DNA of 64,000 nucleotides, from the NCBI RefSeq assembly GCF_044324785.1, contig NZ_CP172127.1; one strand, 5' to 3'. The stretch is from Escherichia coli. Its GTDB lineage: Bacteria > Pseudomonadota > Gammaproteobacteria > Enterobacterales > Enterobacteriaceae. Below, piece after piece: positions 34,763 through 63,568 of the stretch (the first letter of the stretch is position 1; the number at the start of each line of letters is the position of its first letter). A model generated the notes under the pieces. That model was given only the letters and a program-made list of their open reading frames with translations, was not told the DNA's origin and did not search any database. The position numbers and the translations under genes are program-made.

Positions 34763-35854
34763 ATGCGTTTTCTGCGCAGACCAATATCGCTGCGCCAACG
34801 GCTGATATTGACCATCGGGGCCATTTTGTTGGTGTTTGAGCTGATCAGCGTCTTCTGGCTATGGCATGAAAGTACCGAGCAGATTCAGCTGTTTGAGCAG
34901 GCGCTACGCGACAATCGCAACAACGATCGCCACATCATGCGTGAGATCCGCGAGGCGGTCGCCAGCCTGATTGTCCCCGGCGTCTTTATGGTCAGCCTGA
35001 CGCTATTTATCTGCTATCAGGCGGTACGCCGCATCACCCGGCCGCTGGCGGAGCTGCAAAAAGAGCTGGAAGCGCGCACCGCCGACAATTTAACGCCTAT
35101 TGCCATTCACAGTGCCACCCTCGAAATCGAAGCGGTGGTTTCGGCGTTAAACGATCTGGTCAGTCGCCTGACCAGCACGCTGGATAACGAAAGGTTGTTT
35201 ACCGCTGACGTCGCGCACGAACTGCGAACGCCACTGGCGGGGGTGCGTTTGCATCTGGAACTGCTGGCGAAAACGCATCACATTGATGTAGCACCGTTAG
35301 TGGCACGGCTTGATCAGATGATGGAGAGTGTCTCCCAGCTACTGCAACTGGCGCGTGCCGGACAGTCATTTTCTTCCGGGAATTATCAACATGTAAAACT
35401 GCTGGAAGATGTCATTCTCCCCTCGTATGACGAACTCAGTACCATGCTCGACCAGCGCCAGCAAACCCTGCTATTGCCAGAGAGCGCCGCCGACATCACC
35501 GTTCAGGGTGATGCAACCCTGCTGCGGATGTTATTGCGAAACCTGGTAGAAAATGCCCATCGTTACAGCCCGCAAGGCAGCAACATTATGATTAAGCTGC
35601 AAGAAGATGGCGGAGCGGTCATGGCCGTTGAAGATGAAGGACCGGGTATTGATGAGAGTAAATGCGGGGAGTTGAGTAAAGCGTTTGTACGTATGGACAG
35701 CCGTTATGGCGGGATTGGTCTGGGGTTAAGTATTGTCAGCCGCATTACACAGTTGCATCACGGGCAGTTTTTCCTGCAAAACCGGCAAGAAACTTCCGGC
35801 ACGCGGGCCTGGGTACGGCTGAAGAAAGATCAGAACGTGGCAAACCAGATATAA
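34763..35854 (+). CDS. basS: Sensor kinase BasS (PmrB)
   Basis: 363 aa from the ATG at MRFLRRP; ORF track begins at an upstream TTG (34754). Confidence 0.85.
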   Translation: MRFLRRPISLRQRLILTIGAILLVFELISVFWLWHESTEQIQLFEQALRDNRNNDRHIMREIREAVASLIVPGVFMVSLTLFICYQAVRRITRPLAELQKELEARTADNLTPIAIHSATLEIEAVVSALNDLVSRLTSTLDNERLFTADVAHELRTPLAGVRLHLELLAKTHHIDVAPLVARLDQMMESVSQLLQLARAGQSFSSGNYQHVKLLEDVILPSYDELSTMLDQRQQTLLLPESAADITVQGDATLLRMLLRNLVENAHRYSPQGSNIMIKLQEDGGAVMAVEDEGPGIDESKCGELSKAFVRMDSRYGGIGLGLSIVSRITQLHHGQFFLQNRQETSGTRAWVRLKKDQNVANQI

Positions 35855-35919
35855 AGAAAGCTGCTGACCACCAGCACGCTGAACACGGTAGTTAAACTTT
35901 CATAAACACGGTTTTTCAT
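35830..35919 (-). CDS. pmrR: PmrR small membrane protein (29 aa)
   Basis: Hand-translated minus-strand ORF MKNRVYESLTTVFSVLVVSSFLYIWFATF; overlaps the basS 3' end antisense. Confidence 0.6.
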   Translation of the reverse strand: MKNRVYESLTTVFSVLVVSSFLYIWFATF

Positions 35920-36030
35920 TGCACTCTCCTCCGTTAACCTGGAGGAGAGTATGCGCGTCAGAGATTAAGTGAACCTTAAGAGTTCAATTGGCCTGATAAG
36001 ACAGCGTCACATCAGGCCATCCGTTTCAGC

Positions 36031-41637: not shown

Positions 41638-41655
41638 TTGTATTGTGATCGGTAA

Positions 41656-41731
41656 GCCGGATAAGGCGCTCGCGCCGCATCCGGCAACGATGCCGACAGC
41701 CTGATGCGACGCTGACCGCGTCTTATCAGGC
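41656..41731. repeat. REP/BIME palindromic repeat cluster
   Basis: gccggataaggcg...cgccgcatccggc and gcctgatgcgacgctg...cgtcttatcaggc imperfect palindromes. Confidence 0.5.
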
Positions 41732-41796
41732 TTCCCTCTCATCTGTATAAATTTCGAACTACACTTAACTGGCTTCTCTTAACTGAGGTCACCATC

Positions 41797-42372: not shown

Positions 42373-43161
42373 ATGCAAACGATTATCCGTGTCGAGAAGC
42401 TCGCCAAAACCTTCAATCAGCATCAGGCGCTGCACGCGGTTGATCTGAACATTCATCACGGTGAAATGGTGGCTCTGCTTGGGCCGTCGGGTTCCGGCAA
42501 ATCCACCCTTTTACGTCACTTAAGCGGTTTGATTACCGGCGATAAATCTGCCGGTAGCCATATCGAGCTGCTGGGCCGCACAGTCCAGCGCGAAGGCCGC
42601 CTGGCACGCGATATCCGCAAAAGCCGCGCCAACACCGGCTACATCTTCCAACAATTCAACCTGGTGAATCGCCTGAGCGTACTGGAGAACGTGCTGATTG
42701 GCGCGCTCGGCAGCACGCCATTCTGGCGCACCTGTTTTAGCTACTTCACCCGCGAGCAGAAACAGCGCGCGTTACAGGCGCTGACCCGCGTTGGCATGGT
42801 GCATTTTGCCCATCAGCGCGTTTCCACCCTCTCCGGCGGGCAACAGCAGCGTGTGGCGATTGCCCGCGCGCTGATGCAGCAGGCGAAGGTGATTCTGGCG
42901 GACGAACCCATCGCCTCGCTGGACCCGGAATCAGCGCGCATCGTGATGGACACCCTGCGCGACATCAACCAGAACGACGGCATTACCGTGGTCGTCACGC
43001 TGCATCAGGTGGATTACGCCCTGCGCTACTGCGAACGCATCGTCGCCCTGCGCCAGGGGCACGTCTTCTACGACGGCAGCAGCCAACAGTTTGATAACGA
43101 ACGCTTTGATCATCTCTATCGCAGCATCAACCGCGTCGAAGAGAACGCGAAAGCTGCCTGA
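42373..43161 (+). CDS. phnC: Phosphonate ABC transporter ATPase
   Basis: 262 aa; Walker [10 protein letters not shown]. Confidence 0.9.
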
Positions 43162-44202: not shown

Positions 44203-44209
44203 ATCGTAA

Positions 44210-44292
44210 GTCGGATAAGACGCCACGGCGTCGCATCCGACAATGTGCAGACGTTGATGCCGGATGCGGTGCAAGCACCTTATCCGGCCTAC
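44210..44292. repeat. REP/BIME palindromic repeat cluster
   Basis: gtcggataagacgccacggcgtcgcatccgac and gccggatgcggtgcaagcaccttatccggc. Confidence 0.5.
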
Positions 44293-52427: not shown

Positions 52428-53186
52428 ATGAGCCTGACCCTCACACTTACTGGCACTGGCGGCGCACAGGGCGTTCCCGCATGGGGCTGTGAGTGCGTGG
52501 CCTGCGTCAGAGCGCGGCGCTCACCGCAGTATCGCCGCCAGCCATGTAGCGGCGTCGTGAAGTTTAACGACGCGATCACCCTGATCGACGCCGGGCTGCA
52601 CGATCTCGCCGATCGCTGGTCGCCCGGATCGTTCCAGCAGTTTTTGCTGACGCACTACCATATGGATCACGTGCAGGGACTGTTTCCGCTGCGCTGGGGC
52701 GTGGGCGATCAGATCCCGGTCTACGGCCCGCCGGATGAACAGGGCTGCGACGATCTGTTTAAACATTCGGGCCTGCTTGATTTCAGCCACACGGTGGAGC
52801 CATTTGTGATGTTTGATTTGCAGGGATTACAGGTCACGCCGCTGCCGCTCAACCATTCGAAACTCACTTTCGGCTATCTACTGGAAACGGCACATAGCCG
52901 GGTGGCGTGGCTGTCTGACACCGCAGGCCTGCCGGAAAAAACGCTGAAATTTTTACGCAATAATCAGCCACAGGTAATGGTGATTGATTGCAGCCACCCA
53001 CCGCGCGAGGATGCACCGCGTAATCACTGTGATTTAAATACCGTGCTTGCGCTGAATCAGGTTATCCGCTCGCCACGGGTGATTCTGACTCATATCAGCC
53101 ACCAGTTTGATGCGTGGCTGATGGAAAACGCACTGCCGTCGGGGTTTGAGGCGGGGTTTGATGGGATGGAGATTGGGGTGGCGTGA
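52428..53186 (+). CDS. phnP: PhnP, metallo-beta-lactamase-fold phosphodiesterase
   Basis: 252 aa; HYHMDH motif. Confidence 0.9.
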
Positions 53187-53220
53187 TGGGTGAGGGGCGA
53201 TGCCTGCTCTAAACTCAACA

Positions 53221-53550
53221 TCACCGCCCATACTCATCTTCCATTCTCCGCTCTTCATCCTCCAGTTGCCGACGCTCCTGATCAAGCTGGCGCTGGCGAT
53301 CGTCCAGCTGCCTGCGGCGATCTTCAAACTGGCGGCGGCGATCGTCATATTGTCTGCGCCGATCGTCGTTCACTTCACGCTGCCAGCCGTCGTCGCGCGA
53401 ATCTTCATAGTCTCGCCCACGGTCAGGGTTATAAGCATCGTTAATCGCCTGCTGAATATTGCCAATGGTGTCGTCGATAATATCGGCCTGGGCCGGAACG
53501 GTGGACAGCGTGAGCAGGGTGAATAAAAGAAATAGCGGAAAACGTTTCAT
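53221..53550 (-). CDS. yjdP: Secreted Arg/Asp-rich protein YjdP
   Basis: 109 aa with signal peptide and DRRRQ repeats. Confidence 0.8.
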   Translation of the reverse strand: MKRFPLFLLFTLLTLSTVPAQADIIDDTIGNIQQAINDAYNPDRGRDYEDSRDDGWQREVNDDRRRQYDDRRRQFEDRRRQLDDRQRQLDQERRQLEDEERRMEDEYGR

Positions 53551-53618
53551 TAGCCAACCTCAAAAAGAAACTCTATCCACATTAGTCATTACTCATCCAT
53601 GCAAGTAGTGGATGAATC

Positions 53619-53814
53619 TCAATTTCTCCGCTGCTCTATTGCCGTAATCGCCTCCACGCGTTGTTGATGACGACCGCCTTCGTACTGCGCGCCCAGCCAC
53701 GCATCCACAATCATTTTTGCCAGTTCGAGGCCAACCACTCGTGAACCAAAAGCCAGTGCAACTTCACTGGCGTAATGCGGATAATCAGTGCGCTCTGACG
53801 ACCTGGTTCTTTAT
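53619..53814 (-). pseudogene. rpiB: Degenerate remnant of rpiB (ribose-5-phosphate isomerase B)
   Basis: Minus-strand translation gives SSERTDYPHYASEVALA fused to FGSRVVGLELAKMIVDAWLGAQYEGGRHQQRVEAITAIEQRRN-stop, matching RpiB N- and C-terminal segments as I recall them with the catalytic middle missing; upstream frame is closed. Confidence 0.45.
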
Positions 53815-54147
53815 CAATCCCCTCACTCATTGACCATAAATACAAGGCTGGCACAGCAACGCGGAATCCTGCGGTGCCAGCGACATGACCGCCCATTGCT
53901 CCGGTACTTTTTTTAAAAAGAAACATCGGTTGCATTGATAAATATATAAAACACCTCATATTATTTACGGAGATAATAAATTCGCGTGCTTTTCCCTCTT
54001 CAGCACAAATGCCTAATAAAATGGCTCGTTCCGCTCACACTTCCACTTATTAAAGTCGCAATTTCCCAATTATGATAACGCCAGCTTTAAATGACGTATT
54101 TTGCATGGGTTACATATTTACGACACAAATGATAAATGGAGATTTAT

Positions 54148-56133
54148 ATGAATAACTCTCGGTTATTCCGTTTGAGCAGGATTGTTATTGCGTTAACTGC
54201 CGCCAGCGGCATGATGGTAAATACCGCTTACGCAACAGATGAAGCGAAAGCCGCCACTCAATATACCCAACAGATTAATCAGAATTACGCCAAATCATTA
54301 CCGTTTAGCGATCGTCAGGATTTTGACGATGCCCAGCGTGGATTTATCGCCCCGCTGCTGGATGAAGGTATTCTGCGTGATGCGAACGGTAAAGTTTACT
54401 ACCGCGCAGACGACTACAAATTTGATATTAATGCCGCTGCGCCGGAAACCGTAAACCCCAGCCTGTGGCGTCAGTCGCAGATCAACGGCATTTCTGGCCT
54501 GTTCAAAGTCACCGATAAAATGTATCAGGTGCGCGGCCAGGATATCTCTAACATTACATTTGTAGAAGGCGAGAAAGGCATTATTGTTATCGACCCGCTG
54601 GTGACGCCGCCTGCCGCAAAAGCCGCACTTGACCTTTACTTCCAGCATCGTCCGCAAAAACCGATTGTTGCTGTGATTTACACCCACAGCCACGCCGACC
54701 ATTATGGCGGTGTGAAAGGCATTATCTCTGAAGCGGATGTTAAATCCGGCAAAGTGCAGGTGATCGCTCCGGCAGGCTTTATGGACGAAGCCATCAGCGA
54801 AAACGTGCTGGCGGGTAACATCATGAGCCGCCGTGCGCTCTACTCTTACGGTCTGTTACTGCCGCACAACGCGCAAGGCAACGTGGGCAACGGCCTGGGC
54901 GTGACGCTGGCAACCGGCGACCCGAGCATTATTGCACCGACTAAAACTATCGTCAGAACTGGCGAGAAGATGATTATCGACGGCCTGGAATTTGACTTCC
55001 TGATGACTCCGGGTAGCGAAGCGCCAGCCGAAATGCACTTCTACATTCCGGCCCTGAAAGCCCTGTGTACCGCCGAGAACGCCACGCATACCCTGCACAA
55101 CTTCTACACTCTGCGCGGCGCGAAAACCCGCGATACCAGCAAGTGGACCGAGTACCTGAACGAAACGCTGGATATGTGGGGTAACGACGCGGAAGTACTG
55201 TTTATGCCGCACACCTGGCCGGTCTGGGGCAATAAGCATATCAATGATTATATTGGTAAATATCGCGATACTATCAAGTACATTCACGACCAGACCCTGC
55301 ACCTGGCGAACCAGGGCTACACCATGAATGAAATCGGCGACATGATTAAGCTACCGCCTGCGCTTGCCAATAACTGGGCCAGCCGCGGCTATTACGGTTC
55401 TGTCAGCCACAACGCCCGCGCGGTGTATAACTTCTATCTTGGCTATTACGACGGTAACCCGGCTAACCTGCATCCATATGGTCAGGTGGAGATGGGTAAA
55501 CGTTACGTGCAGGCTCTGGGCGGTTCTGCCCGCGTCATCAACCTGGCGAAAGAAGCGAACAAGCAAGGTGATTATCGCTGGTCGGCAGAACTGCTGAAAC
55601 AGGTGATTGCCGCCAACCCTGGTGACCAGGTCGCGAAGAATCTGCAAGCGAATAACTTTGAACAGCTGGGCTATCAGGCCGAGTCCGCCACCTGGCGCGG
55701 TTTCTACCTGACCGGCGCGAAAGAGCTGCGCGAAGGGGTGCATAAATTCAGCCACGGCACCACCGGTTCCCCGGACACCATTCGCGGAATGTCGGTCGAA
55801 ATGCTGTTCGACTTTATGTCCGTTCGCCTCGATAGCGCGAAAGCCGCGGGTAAAAATATCAGCCTGAACTTCAATATGAGCAACGGCGATAACCTCAACC
55901 TGACGCTGAACGATAGCGTGCTTAACTACCGTAAAACGCTGCAACCGCAAGCCGACGCCTCTTTCTACATCAGCCGTGAAGATCTGCACGCCGTGCTGAC
56001 CGGACAAGTCAAAATGGCGGATCTGGTAAAAGCGAAGAAAGCCAAAATTATTGGCAATGGCGCGAAACTGGAAGAAATTATTGCCTGTCTGGATAATTTC
56101 GATTTGTGGGTGAATATCGTAACCCCAAATTAA
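54148..56133 (+). CDS. yjcS: Putative alkyl/aryl-sulfatase YjcS (MBL fold)
   Basis: 661 aa from MNNSRLFRL with signal peptide; HSHADH motif. Confidence 0.85.
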
Positions 56134-61181: not shown

Positions 61182-61311
61182 AATGTCTGCCGCGTGATGG
61201 CTGTCACGCGGTATTTCGTTTCGTCACGTCAAAACTGACGACAGCCTGTTTTTCGTCAGAGTTTTGAATAAATAGTGCCCGTAATATCAGGGAATGCCCC
61301 CAAATAAAATG

Positions 61312-61328
61312 TGGCATAAAAGATGCAT
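61312..61328 (+). promoter_or_regulatory. Sigma-54 (-24/-12) promoter of fdhF
   Basis: tGGcataaaagaTGCat with GG and GC spaced for RpoN; upstream repeated GTCACG / CGTCA elements at 61196-61250 are consistent with an FhlA activator site. Confidence 0.6.
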
Positions 61329-61378
61329 ACTGTAGTCGAGAGCGCGTATGCGTGATTTGATTAACTGGAGCGAGACCG

Positions 61379-63526
61379 ATGAAAAAAGTCGTCACGGTTT
61401 GCCCCTATTGCGCATCAGGTTGCAAAATCAACCTGGTCGTCGATAACGGCAAAATCGTCCGGGCGGAGGCAGCGCAGGGGAAAACCAACCAGGGTACCCT
61501 GTGTCTGAAGGGTTATTATGGCTGGGATTTCATTAACGATACCCAGATCCTGACCCCGCGCCTGAAAACCCCCATGATCCGTCGCCAGCGTGGCGGCAAA
61601 CTCGAACCTGTTTCCTGGGATGAGGCACTGAATTACGTTGCCGAGCGCCTGAGCGCCATCAAAGAGAAGTACGGTCCGGATGCCATCCAGACGACCGGCT
61701 CCTCGCGTGGTACGGGTAACGAAACCAACTATGTAATGCAAAAATTTGCGCGCGCCGTTATTGGTACCAATAACGTTGACTGCTGCGCTCGTGTCTGACA
61801 CGGCCCATCGGTTGCAGGTCTGCACCAATCGGTCGGTAATGGCGCAATGAGCAATGCTATTAACGAAATTGATAATACCGATTTAGTGTTCGTTTTCGGG
61901 TACAACCCGGCGGATTCCCACCCAATCGTGGCGAACCACGTAATTAACGCTAAACGTAACGGGGCGAAAATTATCGTCTGCGATCCGCGCAAAATTGAAA
62001 CCGCGCGCATTGCTGACATGCACATTGCACTGAAAAACGGCTCGAACATCGCGCTGTTGAATGCGATGGGTCATGTCATTATTGAAGAAAACCTGTACGA
62101 CAAAGCTTTCGTCGCTTCCCGTACAGAAGGCTTTGAAGAGTATCGTAAAATCGTTGAAGGCTACACGCCGGAGTCGGTTGAAGATATCACCGGCGTCAGC
62201 GCCAGTGAGATTCGTCAGGCGGCGCGGATGTATGCCCAGGCGAAAAGCGCCGCCATCCTGTGGGGCATGGGTGTAACCCAGTTCTACCAGGGCGTGGAAA
62301 CCGTGCGTTCTCTGACCAGCCTCGCGATGCTGACTGGTAACCTCGGTAAGCCGCATGCGGGTGTAAACCCGGTTCGTGGTCAGAACAACGTGCAGGGTGC
62401 CTGCGATATGGGCGCGCTGCCGGATACGTATCCGGGATACCAGTACGTGAAAGATCCGGCTAACCGCGAGAAATTCGCCAAAGCCTGGGGCGTGGAAAAC
62501 CTGCCTGCTCATACCGGCTATCGCATCAGCGAGCTGCCGCACCGCGCAGCGCATGGCGAAGTGCGTGCCGCGTACATTATGGGCGAAGATCCGCTGCAAA
62601 CTGACGCGGAGCTGTCGGCAGTACGTAAAGCCTTTGAAGATCTGGAACTGGTCATCGTTCAGGACATCTTTATGACCAAAACCGCGTCGGCTGCGGATGT
62701 TATTTTACCATCAACGTCGTGGGGCGAGCATGAAGGCGTGTTTACTGCGGCTGACCGTGGCTTCCAGCGTTTCTTCAAGGCGGTTGAACCGAAGTGGGAT
62801 CTGAAAACGGACTGGCAAATCATCAGTGAAATTGCCACTCGTATGGGTTATCCGATGCACTACAACAACACCCAGGAGATCTGGGATGAGTTGCGTCATC
62901 TGTGCCCGGATTTCTACGGTGCGACTTACGAGAAAATGGGCGAACTGGGCTTCATTCAGTGGCCTTGCCGCGATACTTCAGATGCCGATCAGGGGACTTC
63001 TTATCTGTTTAAAGAGAAGTTTGATACCCCGAACGGTCTGGCGCAGTTCTTCACCTGCGACTGGGTAGCGCCAATCGACAAACTCACCGACGAGTACCCG
63101 ATGGTACTGTCAACGGTGCGTGAAGTTGGTCACTACTCTTGCCGTTCGATGACCGGTAACTGTGCGGCACTGGCGGCGCTGGCTGATGAACCTGGCTACG
63201 CACAAATCAATACCGAAGACGCCAAACGTCTGGGTATTGAAGATGAGGCATTGGTTTGGGTGCACTCGCGTAAAGGCAAAATTATCACCCGTGCGCAGGT
63301 CAGCGATCGTCCGAACAAAGGGGCGATTTACATGACCTACCAGTGGTGGATTGGTGCCTGTAACGAGCTGGTTACCGAAAACTTAAGCCCGATTACGAAA
63401 ACGCCGGAATACAAATACTGCGCCGTGCGCGTCGAGCCGATCGCCGATCAGCGCGCCGCCGAGCAGTACGTGATTGACGAGTACAACAAGTTGAAAACTC
63501 GCCTGCGCGAAGCGGCACTGGCGTAA
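61379..63526 (+). CDS. fdhF: Formate dehydrogenase H, selenocysteine-containing (in-frame UGA at 61796-61798 decoded as Sec)
   Basis: ORF track splits the gene at TGA 61796-61798, but the same frame continues to 63526 giving 715 codons; N-terminal Cys cluster CPYCASGC. Confidence 0.9.
61796..61840 (+). other. UGA-Sec codon plus SECIS stem-loop of fdhF
   Basis: tgacacggcccatcggttgcaggtctgcaccaatcggtcggtaatggcg immediately 3' of the in-frame UGA, matching the classical fdhF SECIS as I recall it. Confidence 0.7.
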
Positions 63527-63540
63527 TACAGTCCTTTCTA

Positions 63541-63568
63541 CAGCCTCCTTCCGGAGGCTGTTTTTTTA
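63541..63568 (+). terminator. Rho-independent terminator of fdhF
   Basis: cagcctcc ttcc ggaggctg followed by ttttttt. Confidence 0.6.

Follow-up and report, generated by a model that had tools for sequence, protein, structure and literature searches.

fdhF in a 64-kb stretch of Escherichia coli DNA: a sigma-54 promoter, an in-frame UGA and the SECIS hairpin that follows it

Does an in-frame TGA end a gene, or is it read through as selenocysteine? This question is raised by a locus near the end of the 64,000-nt stretch of Escherichia coli DNA analysed here (the window), where an ATG at 61379 opens a reading frame of 139 codons (61379-61795) that closes at a TGA (61796-61798), and where a mechanical list of open reading frames divides what follows the ATG into two, 61379-61798 and 61847-63526. 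The sequence-only reading of this DNA, made from the letters without database searches, had proposed that the region is a single gene, fdhF, with a sigma-54 promoter upstream and a hairpin directing selenocysteine insertion directly after the UGA. Formate dehydrogenase H is the selenium/molybdenum enzyme of the formate hydrogenlyase complex, and bacterial recoding of UGA to selenocysteine has fdhF as its founding example, a gene that also has a classic FhlA/sigma-54 promoter.

Past the TGA, the frame is open until a TAA at 63524-63526, with a single internal stop in its translation, at codon 140. The two parts of the frame are as they had been described from the sequence: the ORF list and the letters bear out both the 139-aa ORF closing at TGA 61796 and the 576 further codons to 63526, which comprise 575 sense codons and the stop. 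Read through, the gene is bounded downstream by a terminator, and its features are the following.

61379-63526, + strand: fdhF coding sequence, 715 codons plus the stop, read through the UGA at codon 140
61796-61798, + strand: in-frame UGA, codon 140, selenocysteine by alignment to X140 of the crystallised protein
63540-63568, + strand: intrinsic terminator of fdhF found by a terminator scan, a 9-pair hairpin (63540-63561) followed by T7

The identity of the protein is clear. When X is put at position 140, the read-through product aligns end to end with the PDB entry 1AA6, with 714 of the 715 residues identical (E=0, 1668 bits), and it also aligns with 1FDO, 1FDI, 2IV2 and 7Z0T, all named 'formate dehydrogenase H'. 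The UGA codon (X) pairs with the selenocysteine X140 of the crystallised enzyme, and the sole difference from 1AA6 is S374N (Asn374 here). The equivalog model TIGR01591 is matched with 1089 bits, against a cutoff of 666.25, and the Pfam domains follow one another in the order PF04879 (Fe4S4), PF00384 (Molybdopterin) and PF01568 (Molydop_binding, MGD-binding). Cys8, Cys11, Cys15, Cys42, His141 and Arg333 are all found at the expected places in the product; together with Sec140, these are the catalytic and cluster residues of 1AA6. Whether the downstream frame aligns with FdhF had been set beforehand as a test that could refute the reading, and the matches to 1AA6 and TIGR01591 identify that frame as FdhF. 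The gene is intact in the window, and two ORFs from the ORF caller are what is expected of a selenoprotein gene. A gas-negative Shigella with a decayed formate hydrogenlyase was considered as a possible origin of the window.

The opposite possibility is that TGA 61796 is a true stop and that fdhF is split or inactivated, its product having 139 residues and the remainder being untranslated or started separately, for example at ATG 61847. The mechanical call of two ORFs speaks for a true stop, and so does the fact that RF2 terminates a fraction of the ribosomes at this site (PMC4513850). However, in the alignment the UGA falls on the selenocysteine of the crystallised enzyme, between residues that are identical on both sides, and the sequence that follows the UGA, together with its conservation, also bears on the matter. 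Two features are involved.

61791-61845, + strand: SECIS element at its Rfam extent (RF01988, SECIS_2), the hairpin beginning just past the UGA
61810-61826, + strand: apical 17-nt stem-loop GGUUGCAGGUCUGCACC, as seen in the folds, beginning 11 nt after the UGA

The Rfam covariance model SECIS_2 (RF01988) matches over its entire length (model positions 1-55 of 55) with 87.1 bits, compared to a gathering score of 70 (E=1e-18), and 61791-61845 agrees with the consensus at nearly every position. Another Rfam family, SECIS_3 (RF01989), likewise describes a hairpin located 3' of the in-frame UGA of a formate dehydrogenase gene, but its match at the same place, 35.8 bits, is below its gathering score of 63, so that the element is SECIS_2 and not SECIS_3. 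The minimum free energy fold of 61796-61840 is a bulged hairpin with pairs spanning 61798-61837 (-14.9 kcal/mol), and that of the 55-nt extent (-19.7 kcal/mol) is exactly the Rfam structure. The apical stem-loop, which is the part of the SECIS recognised by SelB, has a bulged U (61812 or 61813) in its stem and GGUC (61817-61820) as its loop. Its distance from the UGA is reportedly constrained, to a fixed spacing of 11 nt between the two (Liu et al. 1998).

The energy of the hairpin is a different matter. When compared to shuffled sequences, the fold of 61796-61840 yields z=-1.56, with 12 of 200 shuffles as stable, and the 55-nt extent yields z=-1.23; both values are within the shuffled range, and folding energy was dropped as evidence for the SECIS. 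Because the energy is unexceptional, the element is supported instead by its match to the covariance model and by being identical to a characterised element. The stem-loop that the sequence-only reading had placed directly after the UGA is thus borne out by the fold of 61796-61840 and the SECIS_2 match, and its assignment to the fdhF type by RF01988 and by identity to K-12 MG1655. The lack of a stable hairpin at this place had been named as a refuting observation: the hairpin is present, but its stability is no greater than chance.

The arrangement of UGA and apical stem-loop is conserved across Enterobacterales. The exact 17-mer was searched in 100,044 species-representative genomes and occurs at at least 120 loci. 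Among the matches listed, at least 89 loci, all from Enterobacterales, have a TGA 11 nt before the 17-mer (90 sequences with the window), and the genera with this spacing include Citrobacter, Enterobacter, Klebsiella, Salmonella, Serratia, Budvicia and Arsenophonus. A start codon exactly 139 codons upstream of the TGA is present in 81 of the 81 listed loci with enough upstream sequence. About 30 other listed matches to the 17-mer, mostly in unrelated phyla, have no TGA at this offset; with a chance expectation of about 35 matches in 298 Gb on both strands, and none in the window, these are consistent with chance. The 90 sequences include 33 distinct 55-mers, in which the changes in the lower stem are one-sided and wobble-preserving only (C-G to U-G). 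Compensatory double changes in the SECIS stem were not found among these 33 sequences, a set chosen by the exact apical 17-mer and, accordingly, invariant in the apical stem. The Rfam pair between 61807 and 61829 (17-39) is broken in 67% of the 33 distinct 55-mers, which agrees with the view reported by the same authors (Liu et al. 1998) that nothing but the upper stem-loop, correctly spaced, is essential.

Taking the alternative of a true stop up again, a SECIS that scores above the Rfam gathering score lies just after the UGA, and the TGA and the SECIS are kept together in the window and in at least 89 Enterobacterales loci, as well as in 5416 E. coli records that are at least 99% identical. 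Against this evidence, we consider a true stop at 61796 so improbable as to be nearly negligible, and the reading of the UGA as the selenocysteine codon of an intact fdhF is retained.

The cellular machinery for this recoding would be encoded outside the window. The SECIS immediately 3' of the UGA is bound by domain 4 of SelB, RF2 competes at the UGA, and the efficiency of UGA recoding in vivo is about 30-40% (PMC4513850). The genes selA, selB and selC are absent from the window and in K-12 map elsewhere, and the 64-kb window contains no tRNA gene. Among 5426 complete E. coli genomes, selC is present in 5424 and selAB in 5425. Similarly, the window contains neither fhlA nor rpoN.

The next question is how fdhF is transcribed. 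Between the preceding gene, mdtP, and the ATG of fdhF, we identified the following signals proximal to the gene.

61312-61327, + strand: sigma-54 (RpoN) -24/-12 promoter TGGCATAAAAGATGCA, with GG at 61313-61314 and GC at 61325-61326
61338, + strand: predicted start of transcription, placed 19 bp past the motif centre (61319), with a leader of 41 nt
61367-61370, + strand: Shine-Dalgarno sequence GGAG, 8 nt before the ATG, with the block AACTGGAGCGAGACCGATG conserved across genera

The GG and GC of the promoter are 12 nt apart, the canonical sigma-54 geometry, and the motif is located 67 nt before the ATG. The pattern TGGCA-N7-TGCA occurs only once in the window, but chance alone predicts 1.09 occurrences per 64 kb, and the bare count was therefore dropped as evidence. 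A more discriminating measure is a log-odds matrix, which we built from the 186 RpoN promoters in Table 2 of PMC7658346; with this matrix, the site scores 13.37 bits and ranks 2 of 127,970 positions when both strands of the window are counted. Of 82 loci among the matches listed, across genera, 61 also have a -24/-12 motif 51-87 nt upstream of the ATG. It is the location 67 nt before the ATG, the RpoN rank of 2 and the conservation across genera that make the promoter significant.

Direct experimental evidence is available for the same sequence in K-12. Together with the G that precedes it, TGGCATAAAAGATGCA is letter for letter the site OS41, GTGGCATAAAAGATGCA, of K-12 fdhF, a sigma-54 ChIP-seq peak upstream of that gene, 41-fold above threshold and marked as experimentally confirmed in EcoCyc (PMC4591121). 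The sequence-only reading had placed the promoter at 61312-61328; the motif and its sigma-54 identity, by OS41 and by the RpoN rank, stand, but the motif ends at 61327, and position 61328 is one T too many. The start at 61338 is predicted by the rule that places it 19 bp downstream of the motif centre, under which K-12 fdhF has a predicted start 41 bp before the gene (Table 1 of PMC4591121). Expression of fdhF depends on FhlA and sigma-54 (PMC3844500; PMC7658346; PMC11291172). The Salmonella fdhF promoter, TGGCATAAAACATGCATA, is bound by sigma-54, is listed as FhlA-dependent, and differs from that of the window by one base, in the spacer (PMC3844500). In its layout, the fdhF promoter is like the other FhlA/sigma-54 promoters of the formate regulon (hyc, hyp, hydN-hypF), with a -24 GG and a -12 GC and an enhancer of short inverted repeats approximately 75-105 bp upstream.

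Under a different scenario, fdhF would depend on a sigma-70 promoter or on transcripts running on from mdtP, with TGGCA-N7-TGCA present by coincidence. The chance frequency of the bare pattern, about one per window, is compatible with coincidence. Nevertheless, the mdtP-fdhF intergenic region yielded no sigma-70-like site on its + strand, and a terminator-like hairpin follows mdtP. Moreover, the motif is the sigma-54 ChIP-seq site of K-12 fdhF and recurs at 51-87 nt before the ATG in most of the listed loci, as described above. We therefore regard transcription from a sigma-70 promoter or from mdtP as exceedingly unlikely, and the sigma-54 promoter at 61312-61327 as the one that serves fdhF.

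The region further upstream contains the hairpin of mdtP and two conserved blocks.

61188-61213, + strand: terminator-like hairpin of mdtP found by the terminator scan, an 11-pair stem with 6 G-C pairs, then TTTCGTTTCG
61221-61241, + strand: putative upstream activating sequence, block 1, TCGTCACGTCAAAACTGACGA, an inverted repeat conserved at 90% or more at most positions of the footprint
61251-61267, + strand: putative upstream activating sequence, block 2, TTTTCGTCAG AGTTTTGA, with the third TCGTCA; 61253-61258 conserved at 90% or more and the flanks at 75% or more

Short repeats are indeed concentrated here, as the sequence-only reading had observed when it matched GTCACG and CGTCA elements to an FhlA-activated promoter. 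GTCACG occurs at 61203 and 61223, where 0.04 occurrences are expected, and CGTCA or its complement TGACG occurs at 61222, 61227, 61236 and 61254, compared to an expectation of 0.24 in 75 nt (Poisson P of about 1e-4). Three TCGTCA/TGACGA hexamers (61221, 61236 and 61253) fall within 38 nt, the only such cluster in the window. Block 1 is itself an inverted repeat, TCGTCA-N9-TGACGA, containing the palindrome CGTC-N6-GACG at 61227-61240. In block 2, AGTTTTGA is moderately conserved and is complementary to TCAAAACT at 61229-61236. Measured from the predicted start, the centres of blocks 1 and 2 lie about 104 and 77 nt upstream, respectively.

For a footprint, we aligned 60 distinct Enterobacterales sequences upstream of fdhF, all of them from listed loci with the sigma-54 motif. 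Conservation of 90% or more is observed at 61221-61231 and 61236-61241 (TCGTCACGTCA-N4-TGACGA), at 61253-61258 (TCGTCA), in the promoter and in the Shine-Dalgarno region, whereas upstream of about 61220 the 60-sequence footprint displays no conservation. The segment 61282-61300, between the enhancer and the promoter, is moderately conserved. From this conservation and the K-12 literature, block 1 is predicted to be an FhlA binding site, and block 2 a second FhlA contact. A 14-nt FhlA matrix (PMC7658346) has its best intergenic match at CGTCAAAACTGACG (61227-61240), with 8.56 of 16.4 bits; this match ranks only 71 in the window, and the matrix was dropped as a discriminator.

It could be argued that every GTCACG/CGTCA repeat from 61196 onward belongs to the FhlA enhancer, and the double occurrence of GTCACG, far above expectation, fits this view. 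However, the copy at 61203-61208 forms one arm of the 8-bp perfect inverted repeat CCGCGTGA/TCACGCGG which, with a T-rich tail, makes up the hairpin located directly after the mdtP stop codon, and this copy is not conserved across genera, conservation beginning only at about 61220. Because the copy at 61203-61208 is in the mdtP terminator and is not conserved, we place the enhancer at 61221-61267 and exclude 61196-61215. That all the repeats are part of the enhancer is very unlikely. The original claim thus holds in part: the repeats are real and those in 61221-61241 and 61251-61259 are conserved, but 61203-61208 is to be assigned to the mdtP terminator. The enhancer considered below is that at 61221-61267.

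Comparison with E. coli K-12 MG1655 shows how ordinary the locus is. Between 61150 and 61860, the window differs from MG1655 at 4 bases, of which 1 is in mdtP, 2 are in the spacer between the enhancer and the promoter (61297, C versus A in K-12, and 61303, A versus C in K-12) and 1 is silent in fdhF; no difference falls in the enhancer, promoter, leader, UGA or SECIS. Across the coding sequence, identity to K-12 fdhF (b4079) is 98.98%, with 22 nucleotide differences, 21 of them silent and one causing S374N, and K-12 has the same mdtP-fdhF-yjcO neighbourhood, Sec140 and SECIS_2. The gene order mdtO-mdtP-fdhF-yjcO agrees with annotated E. coli genomes. Of 5426 complete E. coli genomes, 5419 carry the 2.5-kb region, annotated there as mdtP / fdhF / yjcO. 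E. coli strain CH423 has the 679 nt of 61182-61860 without a single change (100% identity), and 5416 of 5420 records reach at least 99% identity over this segment. We consider it highly improbable that the differences from K-12 (61297 C, 61303 A and Asn374) alter the regulation or the enzyme, or that 61282-61300 is the site of an undescribed DNA-bending or co-regulatory protein.

Taken together, these observations leave us nearly certain that the locus is fdhF of E. coli or a very close relative, transcribed under FhlA and sigma-54 and subject to SECIS-directed recoding of its UGA. Nothing in the evidence contradicts this explanation. Sequence identity, model matches and conservation are what the present analysis provides directly, and FhlA binding, induction and selenium insertion are inferred. 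Under the model that follows from work on K-12, sigma-54 RNA polymerase would wait at the -24/-12 promoter (61312-61327) in a closed complex. FhlA, a formate-responsive enhancer-binding ATPase, would occupy the TCGTCA/TGACGA blocks at 61221-61267, about 75-105 bp upstream, and would remodel the closed complex into an open complex (PMC11291172), with transcription presumably starting near 61338. Ribosomes are expected to initiate at 61379. As the SECIS emerges, the complex of SelB, GTP and Sec-tRNA(Sec) would bind it through domain 4 (PMC4513850), at the apical loop and the bulged U, and the tethered complex would let tRNA(Sec) decode the UGA at 61796-61798 in competition with RF2. Insertion of selenocysteine 140 would allow translation to proceed to 63526, and the ribosomes that lose to RF2 would release a fragment of 139 residues.

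The stretch, then, is an ordinary, textbook fdhF of E. coli, with its known sigma-54 promoter, in-frame UGA and SECIS; both the recoding unit and its regulation are already known, and nothing here is new. Neither folding energy nor a bare -24/-12 pattern is sufficient by itself to flag such a unit; the covariance model, homology and conservation did so. The case also illustrates that a selenoprotein gene comes out of a mechanical ORF caller as two separate ORFs. The locus matters only as a positive control, one that was recognised correctly from raw sequence.

Across 25 kb of the window (39001-64000), the best match among 5426 complete E. coli genomes reached just 98.4%. The 2.5-kb region of fdhF, the formate dehydrogenase H gene, is 95-99% identical to its counterparts in most complete E. 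coli genomes, whereas a 679-nt segment within it, comprising the promoter and the 5' part of fdhF, shows at least 99% identity in nearly all genomes. Compared with K-12, 18 of the 22 differences in fdhF fall in codons 200-500, and the first 600 nt hold only two. This pattern would be expected either of a strain that lacks close representation among the compared genomes or of a mosaic region. Among the individual variants, codon 374 (62498-62500) is AAC (Asn) in the window but Ser in the crystallised K-12 enzyme. At position 61297, in the spacer between the enhancer and the promoter, the window and strain CH423 share a C, in contrast to the A of both K-12 and strain KE55. Also between enhancer and promoter, the stretch TAATATCAGGGAATGCCCC (61282-61300) is moderately conserved (60-90%) in the cross-genus footprint, the alignment of 60 distinct Enterobacterales upstream regions; this conservation could mark a site of DNA bending or simply reflect a spacing constraint.

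A further peculiarity concerns gene content between two ORFs:

52428-53186, ORF corresponding to phnP
54136-56133, ORF corresponding to yjcS

The gap that separates them (53187-54135) spans only about 950 nt, and the annotation of a close relative places there yjdP and a 318-nt remnant of the RpiB family. Because this position in K-12 is occupied by rpiB and the als (allose) operon, the rpiB/als region seems to be absent from the lineage of the window.

An Rfam scan of the window yielded the following RNA matches, all of which exceed the gathering score:

35823-35988, minus strand, STnc630, an enterobacterial sRNA (178.5 bits)
41655-41732, plus strand, naRNA4/CssrE copy (85.5 bits)
44209-44289, minus strand, naRNA4/CssrE copy (64.6 bits)

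The naRNA4/CssrE elements are nucleoid-associated RNAs derived from repeats.

The highest RpoN-matrix score of the entire window, 15.5 bits, exceeds that of the fdhF promoter and belongs to TGGCGCGGCTTTTGCG (42616-42631, minus strand), which lies antisense within the ORF 42373-43161, the counterpart of phnC in related genomes. This may be an intragenic sigma-54 site of the type described in K-12, or a chance occurrence.

Among the matches listed in the search with the apical SECIS 17-mer, at least 20 Enterobacterales loci lack TGGCA-N7-TGC within 260 nt upstream (L012, L028, L034, L035, L048, L052, L057, L059, L067, L069, L076, L086, L091, L100, L105, L107, L108, L110, L112 and L123). These 20 share with the window the UGA, the 17-mer and the 139-codon spacing, and their N-termini are slightly different (for example, MKKVITVCPY and MKNVITVCPY). 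Some species, namely Pluralibacter gergoviae, Cedecea neteri, Klebsiella oxytoca and Silvania confinis among the matches listed, carry two copies. The loci without the motif are probably paralogous fdhF genes that are differently controlled or located within operons.
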